From positions 63,151 to 127,150 of the forward strand of contig JBHAEQ010000035.1 of assembly GCA_041855685.1 (NCBI GenBank): a DNA stretch of 64,000 nucleotides, given 5' to 3'. Of this stretch, positions 38,354 through 56,086 are shown in pieces (position 1 is the stretch's first letter; the number at the start of each line of letters is the position of its first letter). The notes beneath the pieces were generated by a model. That model made no database searches. It was given only the letters and a program-made list of their open reading frames with translations, and had not been told where the DNA came from. A program made the translations under genes and the position numbers. This DNA comes from Prevotella sp. (GTDB taxonomy: Bacteria; Bacteroidota; Bacteroidia; Bacteroidales; Bacteroidaceae).

Positions 38354-38911
38354 ATGAACATGAGTTCTGAAAAGCTCAAGGAGATGATTCATAAAGTTTC
38401 TGTAGATGATTCACAGGACGCTTTCAAAGAGATTTATCTATCTTTCTACTCTAAACTTCTACATCTTGCAATCTATTATGTCAAGTCGGAAGAAGTTGCA
38501 GAAGAGATAGTTCTTGATGTGTTTGGTGAAGTTTGGGAGAAAAGAGCTCGTCTTGCTGAAATTTATAATTTCAATGCTTATATATGTCAAATGGTGAGAA
38601 ATGTTTCTGTGAACTATATACGTAAGCAGTTGGATAGTCCCAGAACATTAGACGGACTTGACGAGCATTCTGTTTTCAGCGTAGGTGAAACGCCGGAATC
38701 AGACCTTATCTCTATGGAACTTATGAATAAACTTAATGATACTATTGAAACCCTGCCTGATAGGTGTAAACTTGTTTTCAAGCTCATAAGAGAGGAGAAT
38801 CTTAAATATAAGGAGGTGGCGGCAATGCTTAATATCTCGTTGAAAACAACAGAAGCTCATATGACACTTGCAGTGAAGAGGCTTAGAAAGGTAATAGAGC
38901 AAAACTTATAA
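38354..38911 (+). CDS. ECF sigma-70 factor (PUL-associated)
   Basis: AEEIVLDVFGEVW, LPDRCKLVFKL, YKEVAAMLNISLKTTEAHM. Confidence 0.93.
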   Translation: MNMSSEKLKEMIHKVSVDDSQDAFKEIYLSFYSKLLHLAIYYVKSEEVAEEIVLDVFGEVWEKRARLAEIYNFNAYICQMVRNVSVNYIRKQLDSPRTLDGLDEHSVFSVGETPESDLISMELMNKLNDTIETLPDRCKLVFKLIREENLKYKEVAAMLNISLKTTEAHMTLAVKRLRKVIEQNL

Positions 38912-38971: not shown

Positions 38972-39934
38972 ATGATGAAGGATATAGACAGCATCATAGC
39001 CAGAATATTAGCCAAAGAAGCAAGTATGGAGGAGATTATTACTTTCGGTGAGTGGGTGAACGAGTCGGAGGAGAACCGGAAGACTGCTGATATTCTTGCA
39101 GAGTTCTGGCAATGCAGAGCCGAGCAAGATGATATGTATGCACAGACTTCATTCTGTAGGAACAAAGATCGTATTTTTGACAATGAGGATTCACGCAAGG
39201 CATCAGGTTCAAAGCGCAGCATTGGCAGGCTGTTGTTGTCTATTGCTGCTTCGTTTCTGGTCTTGCTGGTTGGATATTGGTATGTAAATTATAATGCTCA
39301 TTCAGAAACGTATGTACTTGTAGCTCAGGACAACGTAGAAACTTTCATGCTGCCAGATAGTTCAAAGGTTGTTTTGAATAAGAATAGCAAACTTACTTAT
39401 ACAGATCAGTTCCTTACAAAGAACAGAGCAGTAATGCTTGAAGGGGAAGGCTATTTTGAGGTTGTTGAAAACGCTGGACGCAAGTTTACTGTTGATGTTG
39501 GTGGTTCTCAAATAGAGGTGCTTGGAACTAAATTTAATATTGACGCTCGTAATGTGGCGGAACGAATTGTAACAACACTTATAGAGGGTTCTGTTATGTT
39601 TAGGAATGGTAAGCATGAGGAATTGATGTCTCCTAATCATCAACTTACGTACTATACAAAGACAGGGGTTTTAGATTATGTTGCTGCCGATGCCTATGTC
39701 AGTATAGAATGGAAGGATAATGTGTTTCGTTGCAAGTCTATGCGCATAGATGATTTGATGCAGGAACTTGGAGAGTATTACGGTGTTGATATAGAAGTTG
39801 ACAGTAGATATGATACAATCGTTGTTTCTGGTGCTTTCTCCAGAGATATGCCGCTTGAACGTGTGTTGGGTATAATTCAAAACAGTACCTATTTCAGGTG
39901 GAAGATAGATAACGGTAAAGTTAATATCTATTGA
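38972..39934 (+). CDS. FecR-family anti-sigma factor
   Basis: TM, then LPDSSKVVLNKNS, LEGEGYFEV and VLGTKFNI. Confidence 0.93.
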   Translation: MMKDIDSIIARILAKEASMEEIITFGEWVNESEENRKTADILAEFWQCRAEQDDMYAQTSFCRNKDRIFDNEDSRKASGSKRSIGRLLLSIAASFLVLLVGYWYVNYNAHSETYVLVAQDNVETFMLPDSSKVVLNKNSKLTYTDQFLTKNRAVMLEGEGYFEVVENAGRKFTVDVGGSQIEVLGTKFNIDARNVAERIVTTLIEGSVMFRNGKHEELMSPNHQLTYYTKTGVLDYVAADAYVSIEWKDNVFRCKSMRIDDLMQELGEYYGVDIEVDSRYDTIVVSGAFSRDMPLERVLGIIQNSTYFRWKIDNGKVNIY

Positions 39935-39994
39935 TACTTGCCAATCTGAAACATATAATAATATGTAGAACCTAAATATAAACAATTTGATGAC

Positions 39995-42900
39995 ATGACT
40001 AAAGACTTCAAACCTAAAGTCCCAGTGTTGGAAAGCATAAGATTGGGCGTTGTATTACTATGTGTAGGATTGTTGTCAATGGGAGTTATGAATGCTAACG
40101 CCCAGACTGCAATTAAAACACAGAAAGTGAAAGTGGAGAACGTGCAGATGTCTTTGCGCAACTTGTTCAAGATTATAGAAAGCCAGAGCAAGTACTTGTT
40201 CTTCTATGTAGATGCAGATGTGGAAGGGATTATGGTAACTCCACCGGCAAATCAAACAATATCCAAAGTACTCGATGCGGTGCTTAAGGATCACTCTCTT
40301 ACATATACTGTTGACGGTCGTAATATCAACATTTCTCGCAAGAAAATTGATGAAAAACAGCAGAAACAGCGAAAAGCGAAAGAAACCATAACTACTCGAG
40401 GTGTAGTAAAGGATAATGAAGGGAATCCTCTTCTTGGTGCTACTGTTGTTTTGAAGAATACTACAACAGGTGTTGTGACTGATGTTGATGGTAAGTTTTC
40501 TATTGATGTTCCTGCTGATGGAGTGCTTGTATTCTCATATATAGGCTTTGAGTCTCGTGAAATAAAAGTAGGTGGGCAGAATAATGTTATGATTGTACTT
40601 AAAGAAGAGCATAACTCTCTTGACGATGTAATAGTCATTGGTTATGGCACTCAGCGTAAGGTTGACGTAACAGGTTCTGTCTCTACTGTAAACATGAACG
40701 ACCTTAAACTTACTGTTGCCAGTAATGCTGGTGAGGCTTTGCAGGGACAGGTTGCTGGTGTTAATATCAGAAACAGCGGTTTGCCCGGAACAGGAGCCAC
40801 TATGTCGATAAGAGGTGTTACTTCGTTTGCTAATGTAGCACCGCTTATAATCGTTGACGGTGTGGAAAGTAATCTTAATAACATCAGTGCACAGGACATA
40901 GAGTCTATACAGGTATTAAAAGATGCCCGCGTGGCAGCAATATACGGCGTGCGTGGTTCTAATGGTGTTATTCTTGTTACAACAAAGAAGGGTAAGGCAG
41001 GTGCATTGCGTATTACATATAACGGTACGGCTGGTGTAACATTTCCATTAAGTGGTAATGTATATAATTTGGCAAACTCAGAAGAGTATATGAAAATACT
41101 CAATGTGGGACAGCCTTTCAATGAATTGTTTGCTAACGGTATGCCTGATTATCTCTATAATTCACCTTATGGAAGTGGTGTGGGATTGGAAGGTGATTCT
41201 CAAGTGGCAGCAAGTAATTATTACAGAGAAGATCCTAATAAAGGAAATAACTATCTTATACAGGCTGTGAATAAAAAAGGAACAGACTGGTTTCATGAAT
41301 CGTTCAAAAGAGCATTCTTTCATGAGCATAATCTCTCTGTTTCTGGTGGAGGTGAGAAATCACGCTTTTTCTTCTCTCTTGGTTTGCTTGACCAGAAGGG
41401 AACTCTCGTAGAGACTTTCCAAAAGAGATACAACATGCGTGTGAATACAGAGTTTAGCATAGGAAAATATATAAAAGTGGGAGAAAACCTAAACTTCTTC
41501 TATAGAAGCTATTTGCCAATGACAACAGGTTCGCAATATGGTATAATACCTAATATATATACTCTGCTGCCAATTATTCCTGTAAAAGATATTATGGGTA
41601 ACTGGGGTGGAACATGGATTGGTCCTCAGCTTGGTTCTGTCGGTAATCCAATAGCAATGCAGAGCCGCACAGCATCTAATTCGGATTATGATTCATATAA
41701 TATAATAGGTAATGTGTTTGCTGAAGTAAAATTACTAAAGGACTTCACATTCCGCACAAGTCTTGGTCTAAATAATTACAATACAATGTACCAGACCTTC
41801 ACAGGTGCACAGGCAGAGAATGCAGAGCTTAATACAAAGGTGAACTCACTTGTTTCTTATGCAAGTCAGGGAAGTACACTTACTTTCAATAATACATTGA
41901 ATTATAAGAAAGACTTTGGACTTCATAAACTGGATTGTCTTGTAGGTATGGAAGTTATAAAGACATATTCAAAGGGATTGAATGGTCAGTCAGATGATTT
42001 TTTCTCAGACAATAAGCACTATCTTCTGCTACAGAACGGTGAAGAAAGATTCCCTGCTTCCAGTAGTATGGGACATACTGCACTATTGTCTTACTTTGGC
42101 AGACTTGACTATAGTTATGCTGATAAATATCTTGTAGGTGTGACTGTCAGAAGAGATGGTTCTTCATATTTTGGTCCAGAGAATAGATTCGGAACCTTCC
42201 CGTCATTCTCATTAGGTTGGCGCATCTCACAGGAAAAGTTTATGAGTGGAGCAGAATGGTTGAACGATTTGAAAATACGATTGAGTTATGGAGTTCTTGG
42301 TTCACAGAATAATGTAACTGCTCAAAACCAGTATTCCACATATGCAAGCAGTCTGTATTATTCTGCATACGATATCTATGGCACAAGCAACTCTGTAGAA
42401 GTTGGAATGTACCGGCAGCGTATAGGAAACTCAGCCACAGGCTGGGAGGAGGATATTGTACAAAATGCAGGAATAGACCTTGTTGCCTTCAATAGTGCTT
42501 TGGAGTTTCAATTTGATGTATATAAAAAGAAGATTAACGGACTTCTTCTTACAGAACCATTGCCTTCTGTCATTGGTGCTTTGGTAACAGCTCCAACTGT
42601 AAATATTGGTGATATACAGAATGTGGGCTTCGATATATCTGCAAAATATCGCTTTAAGACAGGAGATTTCACTAATTCCATATCAGGTAATTTCTCGCAC
42701 TATAAGAATAAGATTGTAGATTTGCCCGATCCGGGTTATTTCACGTCAGGAACAGCACGTAATGAAGAAGGCTATCCTACAGGCATGTTCTATGGATATA
42801 AAGTTATAAAGCTGTTTGATAGTCAGGAAGAAGTTGACAATGCACCTACACAAGACGGTGCGGCTCCAGGTAGATTCCGATATGAGAATATTGATGACGA

Positions 42901-43459
42901 TAATGAGATTACTGCTTCCGACCGCCAGTATTTAGGTAGTCCTCATCCAGACTTTACATACGGTTTTATACTTAGCACACATTATAAAGGTTTCGATCTT
43001 TCTGCCCAGTTCTATGGAGTATATGGTAATACCATCTATAATAGAGTTAGAATGACTACGGAATTCTTCCAAAGTAATGTTACTGCCAATAAGAGTAGAG
43101 AACTTCTGAATTCCTGGACACCAGAAAACATAAACACTACAGTACCTAAGATTGAAAATGTACAGTCGTTCAGTACAACAAGTGCATTTAATTCGTATGC
43201 ATTGGAAAGTGGTTCTTATTTCCGTCTGAAGACTCTGACTATTGGATATACATTTGACCCAAATATTTCTTTTATGAAAAGATTACAGATTTCAAGTCTC
43301 AGATTGTATGTTCAGGCTGCTAATTTGTTTACTATCACTCCATATTCCGGGGCAGACCCTGATATCAGCGGTGGTTCTCCAGCAAACTTTGGAGTTGATG
43401 TGGCTACTTATCCTACTAATGAACGCAAGGTGAGTTTCGGTCTCACTGTTACGTATTGA
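39995..43459 (+). CDS. susC: SusC-like TonB-dependent transducer with N-terminal STN-type extension
   Basis: 1154 aa; LRNLFKIIESQSKYLFFY signalling extension, VLKDARVAAIYGVRGSNGVILVTTKKG, YPTNERKVSFGLTVTY. Confidence 0.96.
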   Translation: MTKDFKPKVPVLESIRLGVVLLCVGLLSMGVMNANAQTAIKTQKVKVENVQMSLRNLFKIIESQSKYLFFYVDADVEGIMVTPPANQTISKVLDAVLKDHSLTYTVDGRNINISRKKIDEKQQKQRKAKETITTRGVVKDNEGNPLLGATVVLKNTTTGVVTDVDGKFSIDVPADGVLVFSYIGFESREIKVGGQNNVMIVLKEEHNSLDDVIVIGYGTQRKVDVTGSVSTVNMNDLKLTVASNAGEALQGQVAGVNIRNSGLPGTGATMSIRGVTSFANVAPLIIVDGVESNLNNISAQDIESIQVLKDARVAAIYGVRGSNGVILVTTKKGKAGALRITYNGTAGVTFPLSGNVYNLANSEEYMKILNVGQPFNELFANGMPDYLYNSPYGSGVGLEGDSQVAASNYYREDPNKGNNYLIQAVNKKGTDWFHESFKRAFFHEHNLSVSGGGEKSRFFFSLGLLDQKGTLVETFQKRYNMRVNTEFSIGKYIKVGENLNFFYRSYLPMTTGSQYGIIPNIYTLLPIIPVKDIMGNWGGTWIGPQLGSVGNPIAMQSRTASNSDYDSYNIIGNVFAEVKLLKDFTFRTSLGLNNYNTMYQTFTGAQAENAELNTKVNSLVSYASQGSTLTFNNTLNYKKDFGLHKLDCLVGMEVIKTYSKGLNGQSDDFFSDNKHYLLLQNGEERFPASSSMGHTALLSYFGRLDYSYADKYLVGVTVRRDGSSYFGPENRFGTFPSFSLGWRISQEKFMSGAEWLNDLKIRLSYGVLGSQNNVTAQNQYSTYASSLYYSAYDIYGTSNSVEVGMYRQRIGNSATGWEEDIVQNAGIDLVAFNSALEFQFDVYKKKINGLLLTEPLPSVIGALVTAPTVNIGDIQNVGFDISAKYRFKTGDFTNSISGNFSHYKNKIVDLPDPGYFTSGTARNEEGYPTGMFYGYKVIKLFDSQEEVDNAPTQDGAAPGRFRYENIDDDNEITASDRQYLGSPHPDFTYGFILSTHYKGFDLSAQFYGVYGNTIYNRVRMTTEFFQSNVTANKSRELLNSWTPENINTTVPKIENVQSFSTTSAFNSYALESGSYFRLKTLTIGYTFDPNISFMKRLQISSLRLYVQAANLFTITPYSGADPDISGGSPANFGVDVATYPTNERKVSFGLTVTY

Positions 43460-43490
43460 AACAATTTTCATATTTAACAATTGAGAAAAA

Positions 43491-45239
43491 ATGAAATATA
43501 CAATAAATATTTTCGTACTTTTTGCAGTATTGTCTTTCTTTGCATGTAGTACAGACATGCTTAATGTAGCTCCGTATGGAGTGCTTGACGAGGAAGTATT
43601 GGCAAATAGAAAAGGTGTAGAGAAACTTCTGATAGGTTGTTATGCAACATTAGACGGGCAAGCTTCAGATGATTATTATGTATGGAACAACTACTGGGCA
43701 ACTGATGATGCACGAATGGGGTCTAATGCGGGTGTGAATGCTTTTGATGCCTTTTTGGTAAATCCTACATATAGTGAAATTGCTACTCGTTGGAAAACTC
43801 TATATGGCTTTGTCGGCAGATGTAATTCTGTTATCGGACTTTTGCCAGATGTTACAGATATGAGTGACATTGAGAAAGCTCAAGTTGATGCTCAGGCAAA
43901 GTTTATACGTGCTTATACCTATTTCTTCTTGGCTGTTATATGGAAGAATGTGCCATGGATAGACGAAACGATAGACTATGGAAAAAGAAATTTTTTCGTA
44001 TCAAATGTTGATGTAGATATATACTCTAAGATTGAAGAAGACTTGATTTTTGCTTCTGAGAATCTGCCAGAGACTTGGAATGAAATAGGTAAGGTCAATA
44101 AGTGGGCGGCAAAATGTATGCTTGCAAAAACTTATATGTTTCAGAAGAAATTTGCTCAAGCCAAGGAAATTCTGGATGATGTTATTGCTAATGGCAAAAC
44201 AACAAGCGGGCAAAAGTATGCTCTGAATGCAAAGTATAGAGATAATTTCCGTACAGCGACAAAGAATGGCCCTGAAGCTGTATTTGAAGTTCAGATGGCT
44301 GTTAATGACGGTACCACAAATGGAATTAATGGTAATCCAATGAGTTTTATGAATGGAACTTACGATGGTACTGCAAACAACGGATATGGCTGGTATCAAC
44401 CTACATTTGATTTGGTAGATGCATTCCAGACTGATGCTGTAACGGGACTTCCTCTCCTTGATAACTATTATGAGACTCCTATAGTAACCGACTATGGAAT
44501 GTCTTCAACAGAAAGGTTCAGAACCTACACAGGTACACTCGACCCTCGCCTTGACTGGTGTGTGGGTCGTAGAGGAATACCATATCTTGACTGGGGAAAT
44601 CATCCGGGAAAATCGTGGATTAGAAATCAAAACAATGGAGGACCGTATAGTAGTGTTAAGCATACCGCTGAAAAAGCAACCGCAGCTTCTGAACGACAAG
44701 GAACAAATAAAACAAGTGTTCCGTATGATGCTATTAGATTTGCAGATGTTCTTCTGTGGGCAGCTGAGTGTGAGGTAGAAGTAGGCAGTTTGGAAAAAGC
44801 AGAGGAGTATGTAAACATGATACGTCAGAGGGCTTCAAATCCCGACGGTTTTGTGAAGAAGTATTCTAATGGCTCTTTCTTGAGCAGCGATGCCGCAAAC
44901 TACAAAATAGGTCTTTATACTGGACAATTCAGTACTAATGGAAAGTCTTATGCGCGTAAGGCAGTAAGATTTGAGCGCAGGCTTGAGTTGGCTATGGAGC
45001 ATCATCGTTACTTCGACCTTTTGAGATATGATGGTAATGATTTCGATTTGGAAGAATATATGGATACATTCCTAAAGCGTGAAGGAGAAAGACTGACAAA
45101 TAGCCCTAATAACCTTTATCTACAAGGTGACTTTGTTAGAGGAAAACATGAACTATATCCTATTCCGCAAGTAGAAATCGACCGAAGTGTTAGACCTGAC
45201 GGCACTCCTGCTTTGATACAGAATCCAGGTTATAAATAA
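43491..45239 (+). CDS. susD: SusD-like lipoprotein
   Basis: Lipobox FFAC, FIRAYTYF, RFADVLLWAAE, ERRLELAME and QNPGY end. Confidence 0.95.
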   Translation: MKYTINIFVLFAVLSFFACSTDMLNVAPYGVLDEEVLANRKGVEKLLIGCYATLDGQASDDYYVWNNYWATDDARMGSNAGVNAFDAFLVNPTYSEIATRWKTLYGFVGRCNSVIGLLPDVTDMSDIEKAQVDAQAKFIRAYTYFFLAVIWKNVPWIDETIDYGKRNFFVSNVDVDIYSKIEEDLIFASENLPETWNEIGKVNKWAAKCMLAKTYMFQKKFAQAKEILDDVIANGKTTSGQKYALNAKYRDNFRTATKNGPEAVFEVQMAVNDGTTNGINGNPMSFMNGTYDGTANNGYGWYQPTFDLVDAFQTDAVTGLPLLDNYYETPIVTDYGMSSTERFRTYTGTLDPRLDWCVGRRGIPYLDWGNHPGKSWIRNQNNGGPYSSVKHTAEKATAASERQGTNKTSVPYDAIRFADVLLWAAECEVEVGSLEKAEEYVNMIRQRASNPDGFVKKYSNGSFLSSDAANYKIGLYTGQFSTNGKSYARKAVRFERRLELAMEHHRYFDLLRYDGNDFDLEEYMDTFLKREGERLTNSPNNLYLQGDFVRGKHELYPIPQVEIDRSVRPDGTPALIQNPGYK

Positions 45240-45257
45240 AAATAAGTTATAAGGGTT

Positions 45258-46124
45258 ATGAAAAGAAATATAATTTTATTGATAGGTGCTTTTGTTTTTA
45301 CTGCCATTATAGTTTCATGCGGTAGTAATGAAGATGATCCAATTCCACCTACGCCTAATCCTCCAAAACCAAATGTTACAGAAATTGACATAGACTTTAC
45401 TTTTGATTATGTCAATCAACGTGACGAACGCCCACTTATGCATTGTGAATCATATACGGACAAACAGAAGGACAGCTTGCAGACAGCATTTTTCTCTGCC
45501 CTTGCAAAAGTTGGTGATAAGCGTGGAAAGGTCGTGACTGCAGCTACATTTCTTGTAAGTTTAGACTATAGGATTCCTTATGGGCATGAGTGGAAGGTAT
45601 CAGATACTCGTGACTATGACTATGTGGGCCGCTATACAAAGAAAGGACTTTTCTTGAATGCTTTTACAGAGAATGGAGCAACACATAAACCTTGGGGGTG
45701 TCTTATTCCTACTCATGCAAGATATCCGCGTGCCACAATTGCCAACCTTGGTGATTACTATGAGAATGGGCTTCACTGCTCTTCGTTCATAGGCTGGGCT
45801 TTATATAATGGTGATGCCGTAACGGATATGAGTTTGTTGGAAAAAACTTATGCCAACGATTATAGGAAATTTCCTCGTACACAAGAAAAGAGTATTAAAG
45901 GTAATGTTGAACTTATCAGAGCTGGTGATTTGATAGGTTTCCCTGGTCATATTGCTATGGTGATAGGTGTTAAAGGCGATATTATCGTCTATGCCAGTGA
46001 GGAAGGAGGTTCTGCTTATCCCGGAAAAGGCTTGTCGTGGCTTACCTTTAATAAAAAAACAACCAATTTCGATACTTTCTCATATAAATACTTTATACAG
46101 ATGAATAATGTGTACGGAGATTGA
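45258..46124 (+). CDS. Surface lipoprotein with NlpC/P60-like (papain-fold) catalytic domain
   Basis: Lipobox IVSC-GSNEDD, Pro-rich linker, NGLHCSSFIGWALYNG and AGDLIGFPGHIAMVIG (Cys/His dyad pattern). Confidence 0.7.
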   Translation: MKRNIILLIGAFVFTAIIVSCGSNEDDPIPPTPNPPKPNVTEIDIDFTFDYVNQRDERPLMHCESYTDKQKDSLQTAFFSALAKVGDKRGKVVTAATFLVSLDYRIPYGHEWKVSDTRDYDYVGRYTKKGLFLNAFTENGATHKPWGCLIPTHARYPRATIANLGDYYENGLHCSSFIGWALYNGDAVTDMSLLEKTYANDYRKFPRTQEKSIKGNVELIRAGDLIGFPGHIAMVIGVKGDIIVYASEEGGSAYPGKGLSWLTFNKKTTNFDTFSYKYFIQMNNVYGD

Positions 46125-46193
46125 TATTAACTGTTTATCTCTTACTATAATTTTAAATTATCTATAATCATTACAAACTTAAAACCTACAATT

Positions 46194-47423
46194 ATGAAAA
46201 AGTGTGTTTTACTAATGTCTTTTGCTTTGTATGCAACATTGACAATTAATTCGCAACAGTATGTAAACCCATTGGAGCGTTGGGCTAACTACAATCTCGG
46301 TGATCTTAATTCATTTACAACAGGAGATGAGGATATTACAATCGGTAAATACTATCAGTATGGACGTAATGTCCCATTAGCCAGTGAGGGAGATGTTCTT
46401 TATTGGGCTAATCAAGGAGGACCATACGAAAATGGTTCACCTGCAAACTATCGAGTTTGGCATATACATCTTATTAATAGTTTTGGTACTACAGCCAATT
46501 GGTTTGCAACAGGTTCTGCTTCTGATACATGGGAAAGCATTGTAGCACAAACAGTTGCCAATGGTGCTCCTCCTGCAGGAACGTTTGAAGGCTATGACTA
46601 TACTGTGGCGGGTTATCAAGGAACTAACGGTGGTTCACCTGCCCCTGTGGGCTGGCATATACCAACTTATGCAGAGATGAAATCTCTAATAGCTGTAGTA
46701 GGATCTAATGATTTTGCTTATGCAACATTTAATGTTAATGATTACCAAGAAACCAGTGTGGATATTCTTGGCGATGGTGTTCCACAGAACTATACTTCTG
46801 ATTACAAGAGCAAGGATCAGTTTACAGTAGTGGCACGAAGATTTAAGGGCACTCCTTATGAGACAGCTTTTAGATATGAATATCAGGAAGTAGATGGATT
46901 CAATACCTTAGAGATTCGAGCTAAGCAGTCTGGCGGCGCAAGTATAGATGATATTGCTGGTTGGTCTGCCGCAAATTGGAGTGATGCAGTGGTAAGATAT
47001 TTCCCTGTTACAGGGTATCGTCGTTCAGGTAGTCCATATATAACCGCCACTTCAGAGGGATTCTATTGGGCAGGAGGTTCTTCAAAAGAAGACCAAGCCT
47101 ATGTAATAACTTTCAATAGTAATCGCCTGCGCGGTAGTTCACATGCAAGAAGTAATGCTTATGCTATACGGTGCGTGAAAAATTATGAAGGAACTACTGC
47201 CATAGAATCAGCCAAAACTGCAAATATTAATGTAAAAGCTGGAGATTCAAGAATTTCTGTCTATGGAAGTTCTTTGGCAGGTCAGGATGTTTATATATAT
47301 AACACGGTTGGTGCTGTTGTAAAGATGCAGAAAGCTAAAGCAAATACTTTGTCATTTGATTTGCAAAACGGATTATATGTTGTTAAAGTTGGTGATACAA
47401 GAGTGAAGGTTCTTGTAAAATAG
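46194..47423 (+). CDS. FISUMP (Fibrobacter succinogenes major paralogous)-like protein with T9SS-type C-terminal domain
   Basis: GKYYQYGRN, PAPVGWHIPTYAE, YFPVTGYR, GFYW and AYAIRCVK; C-terminus LQNGLYVVKVGDTRVKVLVK. Confidence 0.7.
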   Translation: MKKCVLLMSFALYATLTINSQQYVNPLERWANYNLGDLNSFTTGDEDITIGKYYQYGRNVPLASEGDVLYWANQGGPYENGSPANYRVWHIHLINSFGTTANWFATGSASDTWESIVAQTVANGAPPAGTFEGYDYTVAGYQGTNGGSPAPVGWHIPTYAEMKSLIAVVGSNDFAYATFNVNDYQETSVDILGDGVPQNYTSDYKSKDQFTVVARRFKGTPYETAFRYEYQEVDGFNTLEIRAKQSGGASIDDIAGWSAANWSDAVVRYFPVTGYRRSGSPYITATSEGFYWAGGSSKEDQAYVITFNSNRLRGSSHARSNAYAIRCVKNYEGTTAIESAKTANINVKAGDSRISVYGSSLAGQDVYIYNTVGAVVKMQKAKANTLSFDLQNGLYVVKVGDTRVKVLVK

Positions 47424-47456
47424 AAAACCACAAAGGATATTTATAAAAATAATACT

Positions 47457-48794
47457 ATGGGTAAAGTAATCAATAGAAGAGAATTTCTTAAAACTGCAGC
47501 TCTTGCAGGAACTGCACTTGCTGTGACTCCACAGGCTATTTTCAGTAAAAATATCTCTACGACTACACGTAAAGAGAAAATTGCTATAGGTGTAATAGGT
47601 GTGGGCAGTCGTGGAAGGCATCTGATGAAACTTGCGGCAAGGGAATCAAATGTTGTCGTGACGGCTATTTGTGATATAAATAAGGCTGCTATAGATTTAG
47701 CACAGGACATGCTTATAAAAGAAGGATGTAAAAAGGCTGAAGTTTATACAGGTAACGATTATGCATACCGTGAATTACTTGAACGTAAGGATATAGATGG
47801 TGTTATTATTGCAACAAATTGGGATTGGCATGTAGAAATGACTATTGACTCCATGCGTGCAAAGAAATATGTAGGACTGGAGGTGCCTGCCGCCATGACC
47901 ATTGAAGATTGCTGGAAACTTGTAGAGGTATATGAAGAAACAGGAACACATGTGATGTTCCTCGAAAACTGCTGCTACGATCGTGAATGTATGGCGGTGT
48001 TGCAAATGCTGCGTGAAAATCTGTTTGGTATTCCGATGCATGCAACTTGTGGTTATCGTCATTCGGCATGGGGAAGTGCAAAGTGGCTTAAGCCTATTGA
48101 TACTAATACAAAGTCTGAACACTTCGTAAAATATTCAATGTTACGTAATGCAGACCAGTATCCTACACATGGTATAGGTCCTGTAGCTAATTGGTTTGAT
48201 ATTAATAGAGGTAACAGATTCTTGTACCTAACATCTGTCGCAACGAAACCACAGGCAATAAATGAATATGCCAGACAACACAATAACGCTAATGCCAATG
48301 TCAAGTTTAAGCAAGGTGATATTGTTACAACGATTATCAAGACTGTTAAAGAAGAAACTGTTGTCATCAACTATGACAATTATCTGCCACGCCCATATTC
48401 TCGTGATTATTCTCTTCAGGGAACTAATGGTATCTGGAGTGGACTATATTTAGGCCGCGGTATATATATTGAAGGCAAGTCGCCCAAAGACAAGTGGGAA
48501 AAAGATAAAGCCTATGATGCCTATATGCAGAAATATGATCATCCAATGTGGAGAGATTTTTACGCTAAGGCACAAAATGCCGGGCATGGTGGTATAGACT
48601 TCTTTACAATAAAGGAATTCGTCAAGAGTGTCAGGGAGAATGCTTATCCTCCTATAGATATTTATGATGCAGTAACATGGAGTGCTATTATTCCACTTTC
48701 TGAAGCCTCACTGGCAAAGGGAGGTACCCCCGAGTTCTTCCCCGACTTTACAAAGGAAGCATGGAAGAAGCGTAAGCCTGCTTTTGGGTTGTAA
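47457..48794 (+). CDS. GH109-like NAD+-dependent glycosidase (Gfo/Idh/MocA) with Tat signal
   Basis: NRREFLKTAALAG twin-arginine motif; IGVGSRG Rossmann, LENCCY, YPTHG, GHGGIDF and DIYDAVTWS. Confidence 0.85.
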   Translation: MGKVINRREFLKTAALAGTALAVTPQAIFSKNISTTTRKEKIAIGVIGVGSRGRHLMKLAARESNVVVTAICDINKAAIDLAQDMLIKEGCKKAEVYTGNDYAYRELLERKDIDGVIIATNWDWHVEMTIDSMRAKKYVGLEVPAAMTIEDCWKLVEVYEETGTHVMFLENCCYDRECMAVLQMLRENLFGIPMHATCGYRHSAWGSAKWLKPIDTNTKSEHFVKYSMLRNADQYPTHGIGPVANWFDINRGNRFLYLTSVATKPQAINEYARQHNNANANVKFKQGDIVTTIIKTVKEETVVINYDNYLPRPYSRDYSLQGTNGIWSGLYLGRGIYIEGKSPKDKWEKDKAYDAYMQKYDHPMWRDFYAKAQNAGHGGIDFFTIKEFVKSVRENAYPPIDIYDAVTWSAIIPLSEASLAKGGTPEFFPDFTKEAWKKRKPAFGL

Positions 48795-48903
48795 TTTATT
48801 TTTAGCTTTGAACTTCACTACGCATGTGCGTAACTATGTATGTGCGTATGTGAAGTTTACCTGAATATTATCAGTTTTAACGATAAAAACTAATACTTCT
48901 ATA

Positions 48904-51177
48904 ATGTATAAAATACACCGTCTATCACTATTAACGCTCTTTGTAGGCTTGAGTATTCTCGCTTCATCTGCGCAGAAGAAATGGACTATTGATGATATTC
49001 TGCGTACAGAACGTATTGTATCTTTGGCAATGTCTCCTGATGGTGGGAGAGTGTTTTATCAGACCGGATTTACGGCAGACGGTTATTACCCGGTAAAACC
49101 TTCCAAGTTTTACACTGTAGATGTAGAGGGAAAGGAGGTTATAGAACTTGATATATCCAATGCACAGACTTCTCCAGTTCCTAATTCCCGGGTGCTTCGT
49201 TGGTCTTCAGATTCAAAGTTTATATCATATTATACTATGTCGGCAGGTGGGCAACGACAATTGTGGAAAATATCTGCAATTGGCGGAGAACCACAACAAG
49301 TGATATGTAATAGTCAGTCTATTTCAGAATATGAATGGTCACCTGACGGTCGCTATATAATTTATACGGTAGATGTACCAGTTTCGCAAGAAGAAATAGA
49401 CTATCGCCGTAAATGGGGAATTGTAATTTCTCCAGAAGAGAAGAAATGGCAGAGAAGAAAAGAAATTTGGATAAAGAAATTATTATCAGGAAATGTGTAT
49501 CAACTTACTGAGCCTGTAGTATTGACAAGAGGTCCAAAATGGTCTTTTGATAGTAATGCTGTTGCCTTCATAAGTGTTGATTCTACAGGAATTTCACAGT
49601 TGTATAAACTTCCTGTTGATAGTATTTGTAAGCCAGAACAGATTAGTCATGCAGTGGATAATGTACGTTTCTTTGCTTGGAATCCGTGTGATAATTCTAT
49701 TGCTTATGTTACATCGGAAACAGAAAAGATGCCTTATGTAAACTATCATGAAAATGCGCCATTTCTTCCTGGCTCTATTTGGCTCTATGGAAGTAATGGG
49801 AAGACAAAGCAAATAACAGAATCTTCTTTCCCCCAACTGAATAGCGTTGAATGGAACCATTCTGGTAATCAACTCGCTTTTATAGCTCAATCACCCGCAA
49901 CAGCAGCGCAAAAAGGTTACAATAGATATTTTCAACTGTATATGTATGTCCTTTCTGTTTCCGATGGAGAATTTAAGAAGATTGCTGATGGAATGGATTT
50001 CTTCAGGGGAGGTGAGAATATGACTTGGTCGGGAGACGATAAAGAAATATGGTTCGTTAATGGTGAAGGTGTTGGCTATAATTTGTTTGCGGCAGAAGTC
50101 GCTACAGGTAAGGTGCGACATGTTACTGTGGGTAAGGAATGTATAAATCTGCCAAGTTTCGATCATGCTTTCACAAGGGTTTCGTATTTACGGCAGAGTG
50201 TCAATCTTAAGCCTGATATTTATGTGTCAAATGTTACTTCTTGGAAACCACGATGCATTACTGATATAAATCCGTGGGTAAAAGATTATGCCAATGAAGA
50301 AGGCGAAATCATAAACTATCGTAATGAGGGTTGGGATATAGAGGCTTTGCTCATTAAACCGCCGGGTTTTGATAAACGTAAGAAATATCCTCTTATTGTT
50401 GTTGTCCATGGTGGTCCTAACTGGCATAAGCTAAATGAGTGGCAACCTGACTGGGAGCAATACCCTCTTAAGGCATATGCAGCTGAAGGATACGTTATGC
50501 TTTTTCCTAATTTTCGTGGTAGTGCAAATTATGGTGTTGACTTTATTAAAACAACGCATTATGATTTAGGCGGTCAAGACTATAGAGATGTTATGTGTGG
50601 GGTAGATTATCTTTTGAAACAAGGATATATTGACGAAAAGAGAATGGGAATTTGTGGTTGGAGTTATGGTGGATTTCTTACACCTGCTATAATCACTCGC
50701 ACCAACCGTTTCAAGGCGGCGCAGTTTGGAGCAGGACTCCCAAGTATAGAAGCTATGTACGGAAGTCTATGGACAGTAGAGCGAATATTGCATAAGGCAT
50801 TTGATGACTATCCTTGGAACAATGGCACAATGCATGTACAATATTCTCCACTCTATCATGCTCATAAAGTCAAGACATCTACCCTTATACAACATGGTGA
50901 TAAAGACCCGCGATGTCCTTTAGGAGGCGCAGTATTATTCTACAAAGCTCTTAAATCCTATGGAGTGCCAACTGTCTTGGAGATATATCCCGGCATGGGG
51001 CATAGTATTACTGAACCGTTATTGTATAAAAGAATTTTGACAAAAAATCTCGAATGGTTTAATAAATGGCTTAAGGATGACCGCTCTACATCTTTCGAAA
51101 CATCTTATCCTTATATACAATATCAGTCATGTAAAGATGAGAAAGCAAGTGATAGTATAACGAAATGCAAACATTAA
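48904..51177 (+). CDS. S9 family peptidase (prolyl oligopeptidase/acylpeptide hydrolase-like)
   Basis: Beta-propeller WSxD repeats, VHGGP, GWSYGG nucleophile, HGDKD and GMGH triad. Confidence 0.92.
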   Translation: MYKIHRLSLLTLFVGLSILASSAQKKWTIDDILRTERIVSLAMSPDGGRVFYQTGFTADGYYPVKPSKFYTVDVEGKEVIELDISNAQTSPVPNSRVLRWSSDSKFISYYTMSAGGQRQLWKISAIGGEPQQVICNSQSISEYEWSPDGRYIIYTVDVPVSQEEIDYRRKWGIVISPEEKKWQRRKEIWIKKLLSGNVYQLTEPVVLTRGPKWSFDSNAVAFISVDSTGISQLYKLPVDSICKPEQISHAVDNVRFFAWNPCDNSIAYVTSETEKMPYVNYHENAPFLPGSIWLYGSNGKTKQITESSFPQLNSVEWNHSGNQLAFIAQSPATAAQKGYNRYFQLYMYVLSVSDGEFKKIADGMDFFRGGENMTWSGDDKEIWFVNGEGVGYNLFAAEVATGKVRHVTVGKECINLPSFDHAFTRVSYLRQSVNLKPDIYVSNVTSWKPRCITDINPWVKDYANEEGEIINYRNEGWDIEALLIKPPGFDKRKKYPLIVVVHGGPNWHKLNEWQPDWEQYPLKAYAAEGYVMLFPNFRGSANYGVDFIKTTHYDLGGQDYRDVMCGVDYLLKQGYIDEKRMGICGWSYGGFLTPAIITRTNRFKAAQFGAGLPSIEAMYGSLWTVERILHKAFDDYPWNNGTMHVQYSPLYHAHKVKTSTLIQHGDKDPRCPLGGAVLFYKALKSYGVPTVLEIYPGMGHSITEPLLYKRILTKNLEWFNKWLKDDRSTSFETSYPYIQYQSCKDEKASDSITKCKH

Positions 51178-51183
51178 AATAAT

Positions 51184-53454
51184 ATGAAATATAGAAACTA
51201 TCTTTTAATACTTGTGTTAAATATATGTATGTCGTCTCATGCAGTAAATGCTGATGAACGATTAATAACTCTGAATACCAATAGTCTTTCAATGGTGTTG
51301 GAAGTAGATAAAGGTGGTACACTTCTGCATCGTTATTTCGGACAGCGTCTCACCGATTCTTCTCCTTTTATATCAAAGGTATTGTATCGTACATCTGAGT
51401 ATGGAACAAAGAATGAAGCTTACTCCACAATGGGAGGAAAGAACTTTAGAGAACCAGCTTTACGAGTTACACATTATGACGGAGACTTGAACACGGAGTT
51501 GGTGTTTATAAAAACAGAGAGAAACTTTGATTATGCTAAAGGTGTAGAACATCTTGTTGTCTGTCTCAAGGATAAAAAGTATCCTTTTGAAGTGAATCTT
51601 CATTATAATGCTTACAAAGAGGAAAATGTTTTCACCATGCACACTGAATTTATCAATAATGAACGTGGTGATGTGGTGTTGCATAATTATTATTCTTTCT
51701 ATCTTCCAATTGATGCACATAAATACTACCTTACGCATTTCTACGGTACAGCCACTACAGAGATGTCTATGGAAGAAACCTTGCTTTCCCATGGAGTTAA
51801 GAGTATTGAAACAAGGAAGGGCATTAGGTCAACTCATAGTGAAAATCCTTCATTCCTATTATCGCTCAATGCTCCATTGCAAGAAAATGAAGGTGAGGTC
51901 ATAGCAGGTGCTTTGGCATGGAGTAACAACTTCAAGTTAAACTTTGAATTGGATGAATTTAATACATTGAATATATGTTCAGGCATCAATCCTTATGCTT
52001 CAGAATACAGCGTGGCTAAAGGAAAGAGATTTGTCACTCCTACTATGGTTTATACTTATAGTAATAATGGTGCGGGAGATATAAGCCGACGTATGCATGA
52101 CTGGGCAAGAAAAGACGGGCTTTATGCTTCTAAAGAAGTGCGTCCTGTAGTGCTTAACAGCTGGGAGGGAGTTTATTTCGACTTTACAGAGAGCCGGTTA
52201 AAGGAAATGATAGACGGTGCTGCTTCACTTGGTATAGAGTTGTTTGTATTAGATGATGGTTGGTTTGGTAATAACTATCCTCGTAACAGTGCCAAAATGG
52301 GATTAGGCGACTGGCAGGTTAATAAGAAGAAACTGCCGAACGGTATTGATGCCTTGGCAAAATATGCTGTTAGTAAAGGAGTCAAATTTGGTATATGGAT
52401 AGAACCTGAAATGGTGAGTCCTCAAAGCGACTTGGCAAAAAAGCATCCCGAGTGGATAGTTAAAACTTCCGGACGCGATATTCCCAAGCGTCGTGAGCAA
52501 TGGGTACTTGACTTGGGTAATCCTAAGGTGCAGGATTTTGTATTTCAGGTGTTTGATTCTGTATTGAGTCTTTCTAAGGATATATCATACATAAAGTGGG
52601 ATGCCAACCGCCATATAGAATCTGTTGGTTCTTCATGGCTGCCTTCTGACAAGCAGACACATTTTTGGGTTGATTATACACATGGTCTTTATAGTGTATA
52701 TGAACGTATAAGAAAGAAATACCCCGAGGTTATTATTCAGGTGTGTTCTTCGGGCGGAGGAAGAGTAGAATTTGGTTCTTTGAAGTATCATCAGGACTTC
52801 TGGACAAGCGATAATACTGATGCTTTTAGCCGTGCATTCATACAATACGGCACCAATTTTATTTATCCTGCTATAGCCACAGGTGCTCATTTCTCACATG
52901 TCCCTAATCGTCACACAAAGAGAATTATACCAACTAAGTTTCGTATGGACATGGCAATGGCTGGACGTTTGGGCTTTGAAATGAAGCTTACCGACCTGAC
53001 AGGTGAAGAGGCGGAGACGTTGAAAGATGCTATAAAGGAATATAAAGACATACGAGATATTATCCAATTTGGAGATTTATATAGAATTTCCTCGCCTTAC
53101 GATGATTCCGGACTATATTCATTGATGTATGTAAGTAAGGATAAAAAGAGGGCTGTTTTTTACGCTTACTCTTTGAAATATCGTGGTTACTTGGCTACAA
53201 CAAATTTCAAATTAAATGGTCTGCTTGCCGACAGAAACTATTCTATAAAGGAACTTAATAATGCAAAGCCTTCGTTCTGGGCTGACGGTAAGAGTGTTAA
53301 TGGTGATTTCCTTATGAAAGCGGGATTGAATCCTAATCTCCAGAATATATATCAAAGTATGGTTTTATACATGGAGGCAACTGATGAAAATGTGGTTCCT
53401 GTTGTTGATGACAAGAACGACTCGAATGCCTTAGAGTCTGCCGAAAGTTTCTAA
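51184..53454 (+). CDS. GH36 alpha-galactosidase
   Basis: LNSWEG, FVLDDGWFG, YIKWDANR, CSSGGGR and WTSDNTDA. Confidence 0.93.
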   Translation: MKYRNYLLILVLNICMSSHAVNADERLITLNTNSLSMVLEVDKGGTLLHRYFGQRLTDSSPFISKVLYRTSEYGTKNEAYSTMGGKNFREPALRVTHYDGDLNTELVFIKTERNFDYAKGVEHLVVCLKDKKYPFEVNLHYNAYKEENVFTMHTEFINNERGDVVLHNYYSFYLPIDAHKYYLTHFYGTATTEMSMEETLLSHGVKSIETRKGIRSTHSENPSFLLSLNAPLQENEGEVIAGALAWSNNFKLNFELDEFNTLNICSGINPYASEYSVAKGKRFVTPTMVYTYSNNGAGDISRRMHDWARKDGLYASKEVRPVVLNSWEGVYFDFTESRLKEMIDGAASLGIELFVLDDGWFGNNYPRNSAKMGLGDWQVNKKKLPNGIDALAKYAVSKGVKFGIWIEPEMVSPQSDLAKKHPEWIVKTSGRDIPKRREQWVLDLGNPKVQDFVFQVFDSVLSLSKDISYIKWDANRHIESVGSSWLPSDKQTHFWVDYTHGLYSVYERIRKKYPEVIIQVCSSGGGRVEFGSLKYHQDFWTSDNTDAFSRAFIQYGTNFIYPAIATGAHFSHVPNRHTKRIIPTKFRMDMAMAGRLGFEMKLTDLTGEEAETLKDAIKEYKDIRDIIQFGDLYRISSPYDDSGLYSLMYVSKDKKRAVFYAYSLKYRGYLATTNFKLNGLLADRNYSIKELNNAKPSFWADGKSVNGDFLMKAGLNPNLQNIYQSMVLYMEATDENVVPVVDDKNDSNALESAESF

Positions 53455-53468
53455 TATATAATTTGAAA

Positions 53469-54734
53469 ATGATGGTAAAACAAGCAGATATAAAAAACAA
53501 TATACCCGAACATTTAATTCCTTGCAAGCAGAATGATGTGTTATTATTGCGATGTGCCCCGATTTCGGTTGTACGCATAGCCTTCATCGGACTTGGTCGT
53601 CGTGGAAAGCAGTCATTAAACAACTATGTGCATTTAGAAGGCGTGGAAATAAAAGCAGTATGCGACCTTAAGGAAGAAAATCTTTCTGAAGCACGCCGTA
53701 TATTGGAGAAGTACAATAAGAACCGTGCAGACGAATATACAGCTGCTGATGCATGGAAAAAGCTATGCGAACGGTCAGATATAGACTTGGTTTATGTATG
53801 TACAAGCATCAATCTTCATGCCGAGATTGCTGTTTATGCAATGGAAAACGGTAAGCATGTGGCAACAGAAGTGCCCATAGCAAATACAATTGCTGACTGT
53901 TGGAAAATAGTGAATGCCGCAGAAAAACATCGTCGTCATTGCATAATGCTGGAGAACTGCTGTTACGGGCGTTTTGAACTCGCAGCCCTTAACATGTGTT
54001 CTAAAGGACTCTTTGGTGATATAATTCATGCAGAAGGCGGTTATATTCATGATTTGAGAAACATGGATTTTGACAACCGCCCTGATTATACCGCTCGTTG
54101 GCAGACCTTTGGTAATCCTTATCCTACACACGGGCTTGGACCTGTCTGTCAGGCGTTGAATATTCACAGGGGCGACAGGCTGTCGTGGTTAGTCTCTGTT
54201 TCAAACAGGCAGTTTTGTTTTCCGCAGGTTTCAGACGGAAAGATTGATGACGAGTGTACGCTCGGTAATATAAACACCACCATTATAAAGACTGCAAAAG
54301 AGAAAACTATAGTTCTTCAACATGACATCTCCAGTCCCCGCCCTTATTCCCGCAACTATATGTTGAGTGGAACAAAAGGTTTTATTCAAAAAGAGGCACA
54401 ACCTGTAATGAAGTTTGAAAACGCAGGTTCTGATGAAGAGAATACAGTAGTAAGTCTGCTGGAGAAATATGAGCACCCTTTCTATAAAGCCAAAGGTGAA
54501 CAGGCAGTGGCTATTGACACTCATGAGGGCATGGACTTTATAATGGATTACCGCTTGATTTACTGTCTTCAGAATGGGCTGCCGCTTGATATGGATGTAT
54601 ATGATGCTGTCGAATGGTCGAGTATTGTAGAATTGACAGCTCAATCCATAAGGTCAGGCAATATTCCTGTTGCCATTCCCGATTTCACCCGAGGTGCATG
54701 GAATAAACTCTCAGGGTTGAGCTTTGCCGAGTGA
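53469..54734 (+). CDS. Second GH109-like Gfo/Idh/MocA enzyme, no export signal
   Basis: FIGLGRRG, MLENCCY, YPTHGLGP, HEGMDFIMDYR and DVYDAVEWS; hydrophilic N-terminus (starts TTG 53463 or ATG 53469). Confidence 0.85.
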   Translation: MMVKQADIKNNIPEHLIPCKQNDVLLLRCAPISVVRIAFIGLGRRGKQSLNNYVHLEGVEIKAVCDLKEENLSEARRILEKYNKNRADEYTAADAWKKLCERSDIDLVYVCTSINLHAEIAVYAMENGKHVATEVPIANTIADCWKIVNAAEKHRRHCIMLENCCYGRFELAALNMCSKGLFGDIIHAEGGYIHDLRNMDFDNRPDYTARWQTFGNPYPTHGLGPVCQALNIHRGDRLSWLVSVSNRQFCFPQVSDGKIDDECTLGNINTTIIKTAKEKTIVLQHDISSPRPYSRNYMLSGTKGFIQKEAQPVMKFENAGSDEENTVVSLLEKYEHPFYKAKGEQAVAIDTHEGMDFIMDYRLIYCLQNGLPLDMDVYDAVEWSSIVELTAQSIRSGNIPVAIPDFTRGAWNKLSGLSFAE

Positions 54735-54799
54735 TTGGTTCAGCATTTTATATGGTTATATAAAGCAATTTAATTATTAACTTTCAAAATACAAACATC

Positions 54800-54997
54800 A
54801 TGACAACTTTATTATTTATTGGCGGTATAGGTATGCAGGAAGTATTACTTATAACACTTGTCATTTTACTGCTTTTTGGCGGCAAGAAAATTCCTGAACT
54901 CATGAAAGGCATAGGCAAAGGCGTGCGCTCTTTCAAGGATGGACTGAAAGAAGTTGAGAAAGACATGGATATGACTGACAACGAAAAGGAAGCTTAA
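54800..54997 (+). CDS. tatA: Twin-arginine translocase TatA
   Basis: ILLLFGGKKIPELMKGIGKGVRSFK. Confidence 0.96.
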   Translation: MTTLLFIGGIGMQEVLLITLVILLLFGGKKIPELMKGIGKGVRSFKDGLKEVEKDMDMTDNEKEA

Positions 54998-55000
54998 GTT

Positions 55001-55798
55001 ATGAATGGCGAGGGACAAACCTTTTGGGAGCATCTTGATGTTCTACGTTCAATGCTGATAAGAATAGCTGTATTGACCGTGTTGCTTGCAGTAGCGGCAT
55101 TTTTCTTCAAGGAAGAGATGTTTTCCATAATCCTTACTCCCAAGGAATCAGAGTTTGTTACTTACAGACTACTGGCGAAGATTGGCATATTCAGCTCTCC
55201 TGATAATATGCCCGCCGGCTTTAGTGTCAGCCTTATAAACACTGGACTGGCACAACAGTTTATCATGCACATGCAGGCGGCAGTAAGTTTCGGATTCCTT
55301 TGTGCCTCGCCTTACATTCTCTATCAGCTGTTTCGTTTTGTCTCTCCAGCCCTTTATGCAGAAGAGCGCCGCTATGCCTTTCTTCTGGTAGGCAGCAGCT
55401 ATATAATGTTTATTCTCGGAGTAATGATAAGTTATTTCCTGATATTCCCTTTCACATTCCGCTTCTTAGGAACTTATCAGGTGAGTAGTGATATTGAGAA
55501 TATGATTTCCATAACATCCTATATGAACACATTCCTCTTTATGTGTCTTGCAATGGGAGTCATATTCGAAATGCCTGTTCTGACATGGTTGTTTGCAAAG
55601 TTCGGTTTTATAACATCAGACTTTATGAAAAACTACCGTAAACATGCTTATGTTGTGATTCTTATTCTTGCGGCAGTTATAACTCCTACATCAGACGTTG
55701 TAACGCTTATGCTTGTTTCACTACCGATGATTTTACTTTATGAATTGAGTATCGTTATTGCAGGAGCCGTTCAAAATAATTCATTAACTCCACCTTAG
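55001..55798 (+). CDS. tatC: Twin-arginine translocase TatC
   Basis: FWEHLDVLR, FVSPALY, FEMPV, AAVITP and LYELSI. Confidence 0.96.
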   Translation: MNGEGQTFWEHLDVLRSMLIRIAVLTVLLAVAAFFFKEEMFSIILTPKESEFVTYRLLAKIGIFSSPDNMPAGFSVSLINTGLAQQFIMHMQAAVSFGFLCASPYILYQLFRFVSPALYAEERRYAFLLVGSSYIMFILGVMISYFLIFPFTFRFLGTYQVSSDIENMISITSYMNTFLFMCLAMGVIFEMPVLTWLFAKFGFITSDFMKNYRKHAYVVILILAAVITPTSDVVTLMLVSLPMILLYELSIVIAGAVQNNSLTPP

Positions 55799-55813
55799 GT
55801 TATCACAGCCTTT

Positions 55814-56068
55814 GTGCTAAGTGCATTTCGTTACCACCAGTGCCACAACTATGGCACCACCAGTACCGTAACTATTTCCATTACCGGTTACGACACAACT
55901 CTTAACTGTGAGTACTCAGTTTATACCGCAGGAGGTGCGCATGCGGCATCAGGACGGCTTTCAAATCAAAATACAAAGATAGATTTGACAGATTATCCCA
56001 ATGGGGTGTATGTCCTTAAGATAAGACTTGGTGAAAAATCAACGTCGTGGAAACTCATCAAACGCTAA
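55814..56068 (+). pseudogene. 5'-truncated T9SS type-A sorting-domain gene fragment
   Basis: C-terminus IDLTDYPNGVYVLKIRLGEKSTSWKLIKR; no signal peptide or intact YPNP motif. Confidence 0.65.
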
Positions 56069-56086
56069 CCTGATTTTATAAAGCTT

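Follow-up and report, generated by a model that had tools for sequence, protein, structure and literature searches.

A minimal TatAC translocase beside a GH109-containing polysaccharide utilization locus in Prevotella

Substrate-linked tatC loci are known from Bacilli, the examples being phoD-tatAdCd and ywbN near tatCy (PMC3827258). Export by way of twin-arginine translocation (Tat) of an enzyme that carries a nicotinamide cofactor is likewise on record: PMC8121099 cites Halbig et al. (1999) for Tat export of Zymomonas mobilis Gfo with bound NADP, and it reports a Tat signal in BT2158 of Bacteroides thetaiotaomicron. The subject of the present analysis is a window of 64,000 nucleotides (the whole stretch of Prevotella DNA that was analysed) on contig C35 of a 2.63-Mb assembly (56 contigs; 93% complete). 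It contains a polysaccharide utilization locus (PUL) with two predicted GH109 glycosidases, here called GH109-1 and GH109-2, and the last gene of this PUL is followed directly by tatA and tatC. The favoured explanation, held at a probability of roughly 0.68, is that a client-linked minimal TatAC of ordinary Prevotella type lies beside the PUL, with GH109-1 as its sole visible client and GH109-2 as a cytoplasmic enzyme.

The Tat system of the window genome and its predicted client

A sequence-only reading of the window had described tatA and tatC as following directly on the last PUL gene, and this description held: all of the genes were recovered in that position on the + strand. The GH36-GH109-2-tatA-tatC junction is found again in L173, a metagenome contig of independent origin whose TatC is 97% identical; the GH109-2/tatA junction is therefore not an assembly artefact. 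The PUL-adjacent tatAC is the only Tat system of the genome and not an extra copy, with one match to tatC in the whole assembly and a single TatA/B-family gene (a single tblastn match). It is a minimal system: PF00902 covers positions 1-208/208 of the profile, including the six-transmembrane core of TatC, and there is one TatA-family protein and no TatB.

Tat signals were sought in every open reading frame (ORF) of the assembly with regular expressions of increasing laxity and with a hidden Markov model built from 15 Bacteroidales Tat signals, which was run against 5148 ORFs. Both approaches retrieved GH109-1 only; the model gave it 48.4 bits, the next ORF reaching 7.6 bits with an E-value of about 1. 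Other N-termini in the genome that contain an arginine pair belong to Sec or lipoprotein signals of strong hydrophobicity, or to membrane helices. The usual Prevotella Tat clients, a polyferredoxin and an aldo-keto reductase with an iron-sulfur domain (AKR-FeS), were looked for in the window genome and both are absent. Within a 93%-complete metagenome-assembled genome and motif-based detection, GH109-1 is the sole recognisable Tat client. tatA lies on the same strand, 6 kb past the end of the GH109-1 gene. With a sole Tat system and a sole recognisable client, the arrangement would therefore be client-linked and the translocase de facto dedicated.

The N-terminus of GH109-1, MGKVINRREFLKTAALAGTALAVTPQAIFS, carries its Tat signal in residues 1-30, with the arginine pair at 7-8. 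The motif N-R-R-E-F-L-K, which the sequence-only reading had already picked out, is followed by the mildly hydrophobic TAALAGTALAV, as in signals of Tat substrates. The NCBIfam Tat-signal model TIGR01409 is matched at 21.8 bits (cut-off 16.7), and Pfam TAT_signal at 20.1, slightly below its 22.7. The twin-arginine motif is conserved across six GH109-1 orthologs.

In the favoured explanation, GH109-1 would fold and bind NAD+ in the cytoplasm before export through Tat to the periplasm, and tatA-tatC at the 3' end of the cluster would be a vertically inherited, Prevotella-type minimal TatAC acting as its de facto dedicated translocase. A single origin in this Prevotella lineage would have given the linkage its first form, PUL-M20 peptidase gene-tatAC, and the linkage would have been kept since; a later deletion of the M20 gene in the window species would have placed tatA 65 bp behind GH109-2. 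The tatAC genes would probably be transcribed by read-through from PUL promoters. GH109-2 would be no Tat hitchhiker, and would act in the cytoplasm on small imported products that contain GalNAc.

The block consists of 12 co-directional genes on the + strand (38354-55798) with intergenic gaps of 3-109 bp. Gene identities were assigned from Pfam and NCBIfam profile matches, and the features are as follows.

38354..38911, + strand: ECF (extracytoplasmic function)-type sigma factor, PUL regulator (Pfam Sigma70_r2 and Sigma70_r4_2)
38972..39934, + strand: FecR-type anti-sigma factor (Pfam FecR and FecR_C)
39995..43459, + strand: SusC-like TonB-dependent transporter (Pfam CarbopepD_reg_2 and Plug; 76.5% identity to the KH2P17 ortholog)
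43491..45239, + strand: SusD-like glycan-binding lipoprotein (Pfam SusD_RagB and SusD-like_3)
45258..46124, + strand: lipoprotein of 288 aa in the SusE position (no Pfam or NCBIfam match; kept in KH2P17 at 72% and in H1 at 38%)
46194..47423, + strand: FISUMP-like protein with a C-terminal domain of type IX secretion system (T9SS) type (weak matches throughout)
47457..48794, + strand: GH109-1, NAD-dependent alpha-N-acetylgalactosaminidase-like, with a Tat signal (PF01408, PF21252, TIGR01409)
48904..51177, + strand: S9 (Dpp5-like) serine peptidase with a Sec signal (Peptidase_S9, E 2.6e-44)
51184..53454, + strand: GH36 alpha-galactosidase/alpha-N-acetylgalactosaminidase family enzyme with a Sec signal (Melibiase, E 3e-122; GH36N; GH36C)
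53469..54734, + strand: GH109-2, signal-less GH109 paralog (PF01408 and PF21252; 421 aa from the ATG; TTG at 53463)
54735..54799, + strand: GH109-2/tatA spacer of 65 bp, what remains where an M20 peptidase gene was lost
54800..54997, + strand: tatA (PF02416; TIGR01411 at 61 bits, cut-off 53.9)
55001..55798, + strand: tatC (PF00902 at 212 bits; TIGR00945 at 158.5 bits, cut-off 132.7)

The features of a PUL are all present, namely adjoining SusC and SusD genes, a regulator and co-directional carbohydrate-active enzymes (two GH109 and one GH36). GH109, GH36 and S9 enzymes, with M20 in relatives, make up a set that fits alpha-GalNAc-capped glycopeptides. From the GH36 and S9 enzymes (and the M20 peptidase of relatives) together with the sigma factor, anti-sigma factor and SusC, the locus is probably a PUL of the host-glycan type, regulated by the ECF sigma/anti-sigma pair and directed at glycopeptides capped with alpha-GalNAc or alpha-Gal. 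The FISUMP-like protein barely passes the DUF6383 cut-off (25 bits vs 23.7); its matches to Fib_succ_major/TIGR02145 (E 1e-8) and to Por_Secre_tail (22 bits vs 23) do not reach the respective thresholds. The S9 peptidase matches the NCBIfam Dpp5 model with an E-value of 1e-68, yet far under the 900-bit cut-off of that model. Just past tatC (55814-57207) lie an 84-aa ORF that consists of a T9SS C-terminal sorting domain only and, next to it, an Rhs-repeat ORF; at 58-60 kb of the window GC content falls to 0.33, and the PUL-tatAC block ends at this variable region.

The GH109 enzymes and their export classes

By domain architecture and end-to-end similarity, both GH109-1 and GH109-2 are members of CAZy family GH109 and predicted enzymes. 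The Rossmann domain PF01408 is matched in GH109-1 (E 9e-14; motif GVGSRG) and in GH109-2 (E 1e-17; motif GLGRRG), and so is Glyco_hydro_109_C (PF21252; E 4e-52 and E 9e-38 respectively). The full mature length of GH109-1 aligns with NagA of Elizabethkingia meningoseptica (PDB 2IXA, E 4.5e-93), and GH109-2 aligns end to end with the GH109 enzyme of Akkermansia muciniphila (PDB 6T2B, E 1.2e-79). On inspection of the sequences, GxGxxG, LENCCY, YPTHG and the loop histidine are kept in both. The catalytic loop, usually GGHGG in the family, reads AGHGG in GH109-1 and DTHEG in GH109-2, where the histidine is kept and the glycines beside it are replaced; among members of the GH109-2 clade it varies between HEG, HDG and HGG. 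The two window proteins share 34% identity.

GH109-2 has no signal, as the sequence-only reading had stated, and its Rossmann beta1-GxGxxG element starts at about residue 37. A missed signal was looked for upstream of the gene, where the in-frame stretch is 18 codons long, non-hydrophobic and overlaps the stop region of the GH36 gene; none had therefore been overlooked. Its clade (sampled members of at least 57% identity; 397-442 aa) is signal-less throughout, and the members start a few residues before DVLxLxC, the element that opens the mature part of exported homologs.

A third GH109 paralog of the same assembly (L053; C49:10998-12284, minus strand) has the Sec-type signal MRKLFLTALTVTSLMVYG. 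Its orthologs (54-66% identity), all with Sec signals, are found in many congeners, including the tatC-negative genomes G009, G010, G014 and G018. The sequence-only reading had argued that GH109 enzymes must fold in the cytoplasm and hence use Tat. This is too strong: a Sec-signal paralog with orthologs in Tat-less congeners, together with the Sec or lipoprotein signals of the nearest signal-bearing relatives of GH109-2, indicates that GH109 does not as a rule require Tat. The Tat, Sec/lipoprotein and signal-less export classes of GH109 are a recurrent division of labour; all three types stand side by side in L033/L056:11288-12676 (in L056, 17514-18818) and in L133:1224-5542. The presence of Tat, Sec and signal-less GH109 enzymes within one genome means that cofactor binding alone does not set the export route.

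Outside five Bacteroidota genomes, the nearest relatives of GH109-1 (L059-L132) belong to Clostridia/Lachnospiraceae and are 35-41% identical. Alignment with them begins no earlier than about residue 40, so that the signal region is not common to both. This pattern hints that a Tat signal was added to a cytoplasmic ancestor, or that the GH109-1 gene crossed phyla.

Linkage in relatives and rival explanations

The genus was sampled through 24 same-genus genomes for tatC and 40 relatives for GH109-1, and about 8 kb on each side of tatC (or up to the contig end) was surveyed in 20 genomes. tatC is present in 15/24 congeners and absent from 9/24, among them four genomes that are 99% complete and two at 90%; Tat is therefore dispensable in this genus. 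No GH109-1 ortholog was found in the 40 sampled relatives (best match 35%), and the tat+ congeners must therefore serve other clients. The idea that tatC presence tracks GH109-1 across the genus was rejected, with 0/40 relatives carrying a GH109-1 ortholog yet 15/24 congeners carrying tatC. All five other genomes with a GH109-1 ortholog have tatC. Conservation of tatAC without the PUL, which the sequence-only reading had named as evidence against its proposal, is seen in 15/15 sampled tatC-positive congeners; the PUL linkage is nonetheless kept in other lineages.

tatAC adjoins a Tat client in 9/15 of the tat+ congeners. In eight of them it lies less than 5 kb from a polyferredoxin (with an internal arginine pair) and from an AKR/4Fe-4S lipoprotein of 460-480 aa with a canonical Tat signal, and G022 has a Tat-signal Gfo/Idh/MocA protein after tatC. 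The polyferredoxin/AKR-FeS pair beside tatAC can be seen in L141:8645-11627, and also in L138, L139, L144, L146, L148 and L150. In L177:7092-10783 (TatC 67%), tatA-tatC is immediately preceded by the gene for a Tat-signal aldo-keto reductase (ISRRGFLKAAAAVGA) and by two Flavodoxin_4 genes. None of the six tatC-negative genomes of at least 90% completeness has AKR-FeS, and on this ground the lipoprotein looks like the main Tat client of the genus. In the sampled Prevotella, tatAC is kept with a few clients and repeatedly next to them, and the window is one more version of this arrangement.

The PUL-tatAC linkage itself is found again in four or more further lineages of Prevotella, with an M20 peptidase gene between GH109-2 and tatA. 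Prevotella sp. KH2C16 and Prevotellaceae bacterium KH2P17 (TatC 57%) have the full set from the sigma factor to GH109-2, then M20 and tatA-tatC. L032 and L176 (TatC 66%) have GH109-1 through M20 to tatC, L176 from the preceding gene onwards and L032 cut by the contig end. L174 and L175 (TatC 85%, TatA 97%) have M20-tatA-tatC; since these still contain M20, the gene was lost recently and only in the window's own species, by a clean deletion at 54735-54799 that left tatA 65 bp behind GH109-2. In a TatC tree, the window copy falls inside the Prevotella clade (100/99) as sister to L032 (99/96), and the window tatAC is of the ordinary Prevotella type as judged from these proteins. G019, whose tatAC has an AKR/polyferredoxin context, nests beside the window and L032, and the PUL-linked copy of KH2P17 joins them weakly (86/64). 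KH2C16 and KH2P17 each have a second tatC in a different subclade (98/95), which in KH2P17 lies 1.6 kb from an AKR-FeS gene. Block proteins of the window and KH2P17 are 45-83% identical (SusD 81%, TatC 57%, anti-sigma factor 45%), beside 86% for GyrB and 64-65% for MurC between the window and the KH2 strains, and no flanking genes of the block are shared between the window and KH2P17. In KH2P17 (L169:162-7811), an integrase gene (Phage_int_SAM_5/Phage_integrase) and mobile-type genes (AAA_14/DUF4143, DUF6043, AAA_25, DUF6371 and a 477-aa ORF without a Pfam match) directly adjoin the PUL-linked tatC at its 3' end.

The enzyme core also occurs without tatAC, in L137 and in Porphyromonadaceae bacterium H1. 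GH109-1, S9, GH36 and GH109-2 of H1 are 62-79% identical to those of the window, beside 70% for GyrB and 50% for MurC, and the tatC of H1 is on another contig. The H1 core is the one clear inter-family transfer, and it moved without tatAC. The proposal of the sequence-only reading that glycan locus and export machine form a self-contained, portable module thus survives in part: the linkage does exist in other lineages, in the KH2 strains besides a second tatC, but the H1 and L137 cores stand without the translocase.

As to transcription, no terminator-like hairpin was found in the 65-bp GH109-2/tatA spacer, and a manual search for the TAnnTTTG motif found none there. A scan for sigma-70 promoters and terminators over 47000-56500 gave counts equal to those of shuffled sequence and is uninformative for Bacteroidota. 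The 109-bp GH109-1/S9 spacer (48795-48903) contains a Bacteroidetes -7-type TAnnTTTG motif, TAGCTTTG, at 48803, which suggests an internal promoter for S9-GH36-GH109-2-(tatAC). Read-through of tatAC from PUL promoters is probable, with the lack of a terminator as its one indirect sign.

Several observations weigh against the favoured explanation. About 35 bp before tatA (AATTTAATTATTAACT...AAACATC) are conserved with L174:930-1010, where M20 precedes tatA, and may be a leader or promoter element; the L032 spacer also contains a TAnnTTTG motif, and transcription of tatAC may therefore start from a promoter of its own. The sole-client claim comes from motif scans of a 93%-complete genome, which atypical or membrane-anchored clients could escape. 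No inner-membrane transporter that could feed a cytoplasmic GH109-2 was found in the window PUL. Tat-type GH109-1 and signal-less GH109-2 orthologs flank GH36 in the window, L032/L176, KH2C16/KH2P17, H1 and L137, as a hetero-oligomer would also predict. The first two of these points, a leader kept whether M20 or GH109-2 precedes and the L032 motif, fit a neutral synteny in which tatAC, expressed constitutively from its own promoter as a housekeeping operon, is no more than a neighbour of the PUL, the linkage having no functional or selective meaning. Such neutrality would also agree with the many other tatAC contexts in congeners, with the PUL cores of H1 and L137 and with the extent to which TatC diverges within the block (57% to KH2P17), which is typical of the genus. 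It is nevertheless considered unlikely: the probability that a single detectable client per genome would by chance lie within about 7 kb of tatAC in 2.6 Mb is well under 1%, four client types adjoin tatAC in the sampled Prevotella, which argues for recurrent selection for linkage, and the linkage survives TatC divergence down to 57%. Somewhat less credible still is a mobile, self-sufficient module, in which PUL-(M20)-tatAC moves horizontally with its own exporter and the window genome owes its Tat system to the block. The two tatC copies of KH2C16/KH2P17, the PUL-linked one grouping weakly with the window, L032 and G019 and the other elsewhere, would suggest that the block passes between genomes; the absence of common flanking genes, the integrase, AAA_25 and DUF6371 genes next to tatC in KH2P17, the absence of the PUL from 40/40 sampled relatives and the variable Rhs/T9SS-fragment region at the end of the window block point the same way. 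However, the grouping of PUL-linked TatC proteins is weak and has G019 nested inside it, and the identities within the block are heterogeneous and not above that of GyrB, so that recent transfer between the window and KH2 lineages is not indicated; the transfer to H1 took the enzymes alone. A wider version of the idea, that Tat in Prevotella is accessory and tied to its clients, being retained only where a few cofactor-bearing ones persist and lost with them, and that PUL-(M20)-tatAC is a self-sufficient, transferable unit of catabolism and export, is put forward as a speculation. If true, one step could suffice to give a Tat-less Prevotella a Tat-dependent glycosidase.

The other alternative concerns GH109-2, for which the sequence-only reading had left a choice between hitchhiking and a cytoplasmic role. 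As a hitchhiker, GH109-2 would hetero-oligomerise in the cytoplasm with GH109-1 and be co-exported to the periplasm on its partner's Tat signal. Precedent exists among other Tat substrates, such as PaoABC (PMC4273604), and the recurrent pairing around GH36 is what such a complex would predict. Against this, the pair is just 34% identical, and the GH109-2 clade is uniformly signal-less, its nearest signal-bearing relatives (50-56% identity) having Sec or lipoprotein signals that are unable to carry a folded partner. Obligate co-occurrence with a Tat-signal partner also fails. In G023 (99% complete), a 65% ortholog of GH109-2 stands alone among envelope-biosynthesis genes, and the genome has no Tat-type GH109. 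In L035 the clade member lies beside a Sec-type GH109, which as such cannot carry a folded passenger. In L135:6639-12666, two signal-less GH109 genes, the neighbour of the clade member having no clear signal, are followed by genes for a major facilitator superfamily (MFS) transporter, NagA (Amidohydro_1) and NagB (Glucosamine_iso), a set that looks like a cytoplasmic route for GalNAc-glycosides. Conversely, L058 has GH109-1 orthologs without GH109-2 nearby. Hitchhiking is accordingly regarded as highly improbable. On the G023, L035 and L135 cases, together with a more distant signal-less GH109 in the tatC-negative G014, a cytoplasmic, last-step role for GH109-2 is favoured. For PUL annotation, a signal-less GH109 beside exported ones most likely marks the cytoplasmic last step of GalNAc-glycoside breakdown.

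Comparison with known systems

A literature search returned no PUL with an attached translocase, and we know of none; it also returned nothing pertinent on GH109 with a twin-arginine signal or on tatC in Prevotella. In gene order, the locus resembles the host O-glycan PULs of Bacteroides that are regulated by ECF sigma/anti-sigma pairs, in which sigma factor, anti-sigma factor, SusC and SusD are followed by exo-glycosidases and peptidases. It differs from them in that it terminates in tatAC. Beside the CAZy GH109 structures (Elizabethkingia NagA, 2IXA/2IXB; Akkermansia, 6T2B), both window proteins retain the end-to-end alignment and the shared motifs, whereas GH109-2 departs from them in its DTHEG loop and its lack of a signal.

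The locus offers a clean natural case from Bacteroidota in which Tat appears reduced to one visible client and is physically tied to it. Tat function in gut and rumen Prevotella thereby becomes testable by a single enzyme read-out, and cultured relatives with the block are available, e.g. Prevotella sp. KH2C16.

The closest parallels to the client itself are Zymomonas Gfo and BT2158, which are Rossmann enzymes with tightly bound NAD(P) and a twin-arginine signal that are exported folded (PMC8121099). That enzymes of the Gfo type leave through Tat with NAD(P) bound is established, and it explains GH109-1 well; the PDB matches of GH109-2 include GFOR chains too. The GH109 cofactor differs in serving an oxidation-elimination glycosidase mechanism, and tat genes are not reported beside the genes for Gfo or BT2158.

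For the linkage, the closest parallels are phoD-tatAd-tatCd and ywbN/efeB near tatCy of Bacillus subtilis. As in these loci, a two-component TatAC without TatB lies next to and downstream of the gene of its specific or only client; in the window the recognisable client set is restricted, and the linkage is kept in other lineages. The implied logic, by which exporter and cargo are retained and expressed together (PMC3827258), may be shared. The host, however, is a Gram-negative member of the Bacteroidota with one Tat system per genome, not two, and the client is predicted to be a periplasmic NAD-dependent glycosidase in a SusC/D PUL under ECF sigma control. By analogy with Bacillus, the arrangement is a further case of the already known client-linked minimal TatAC and calls for no new mechanism.

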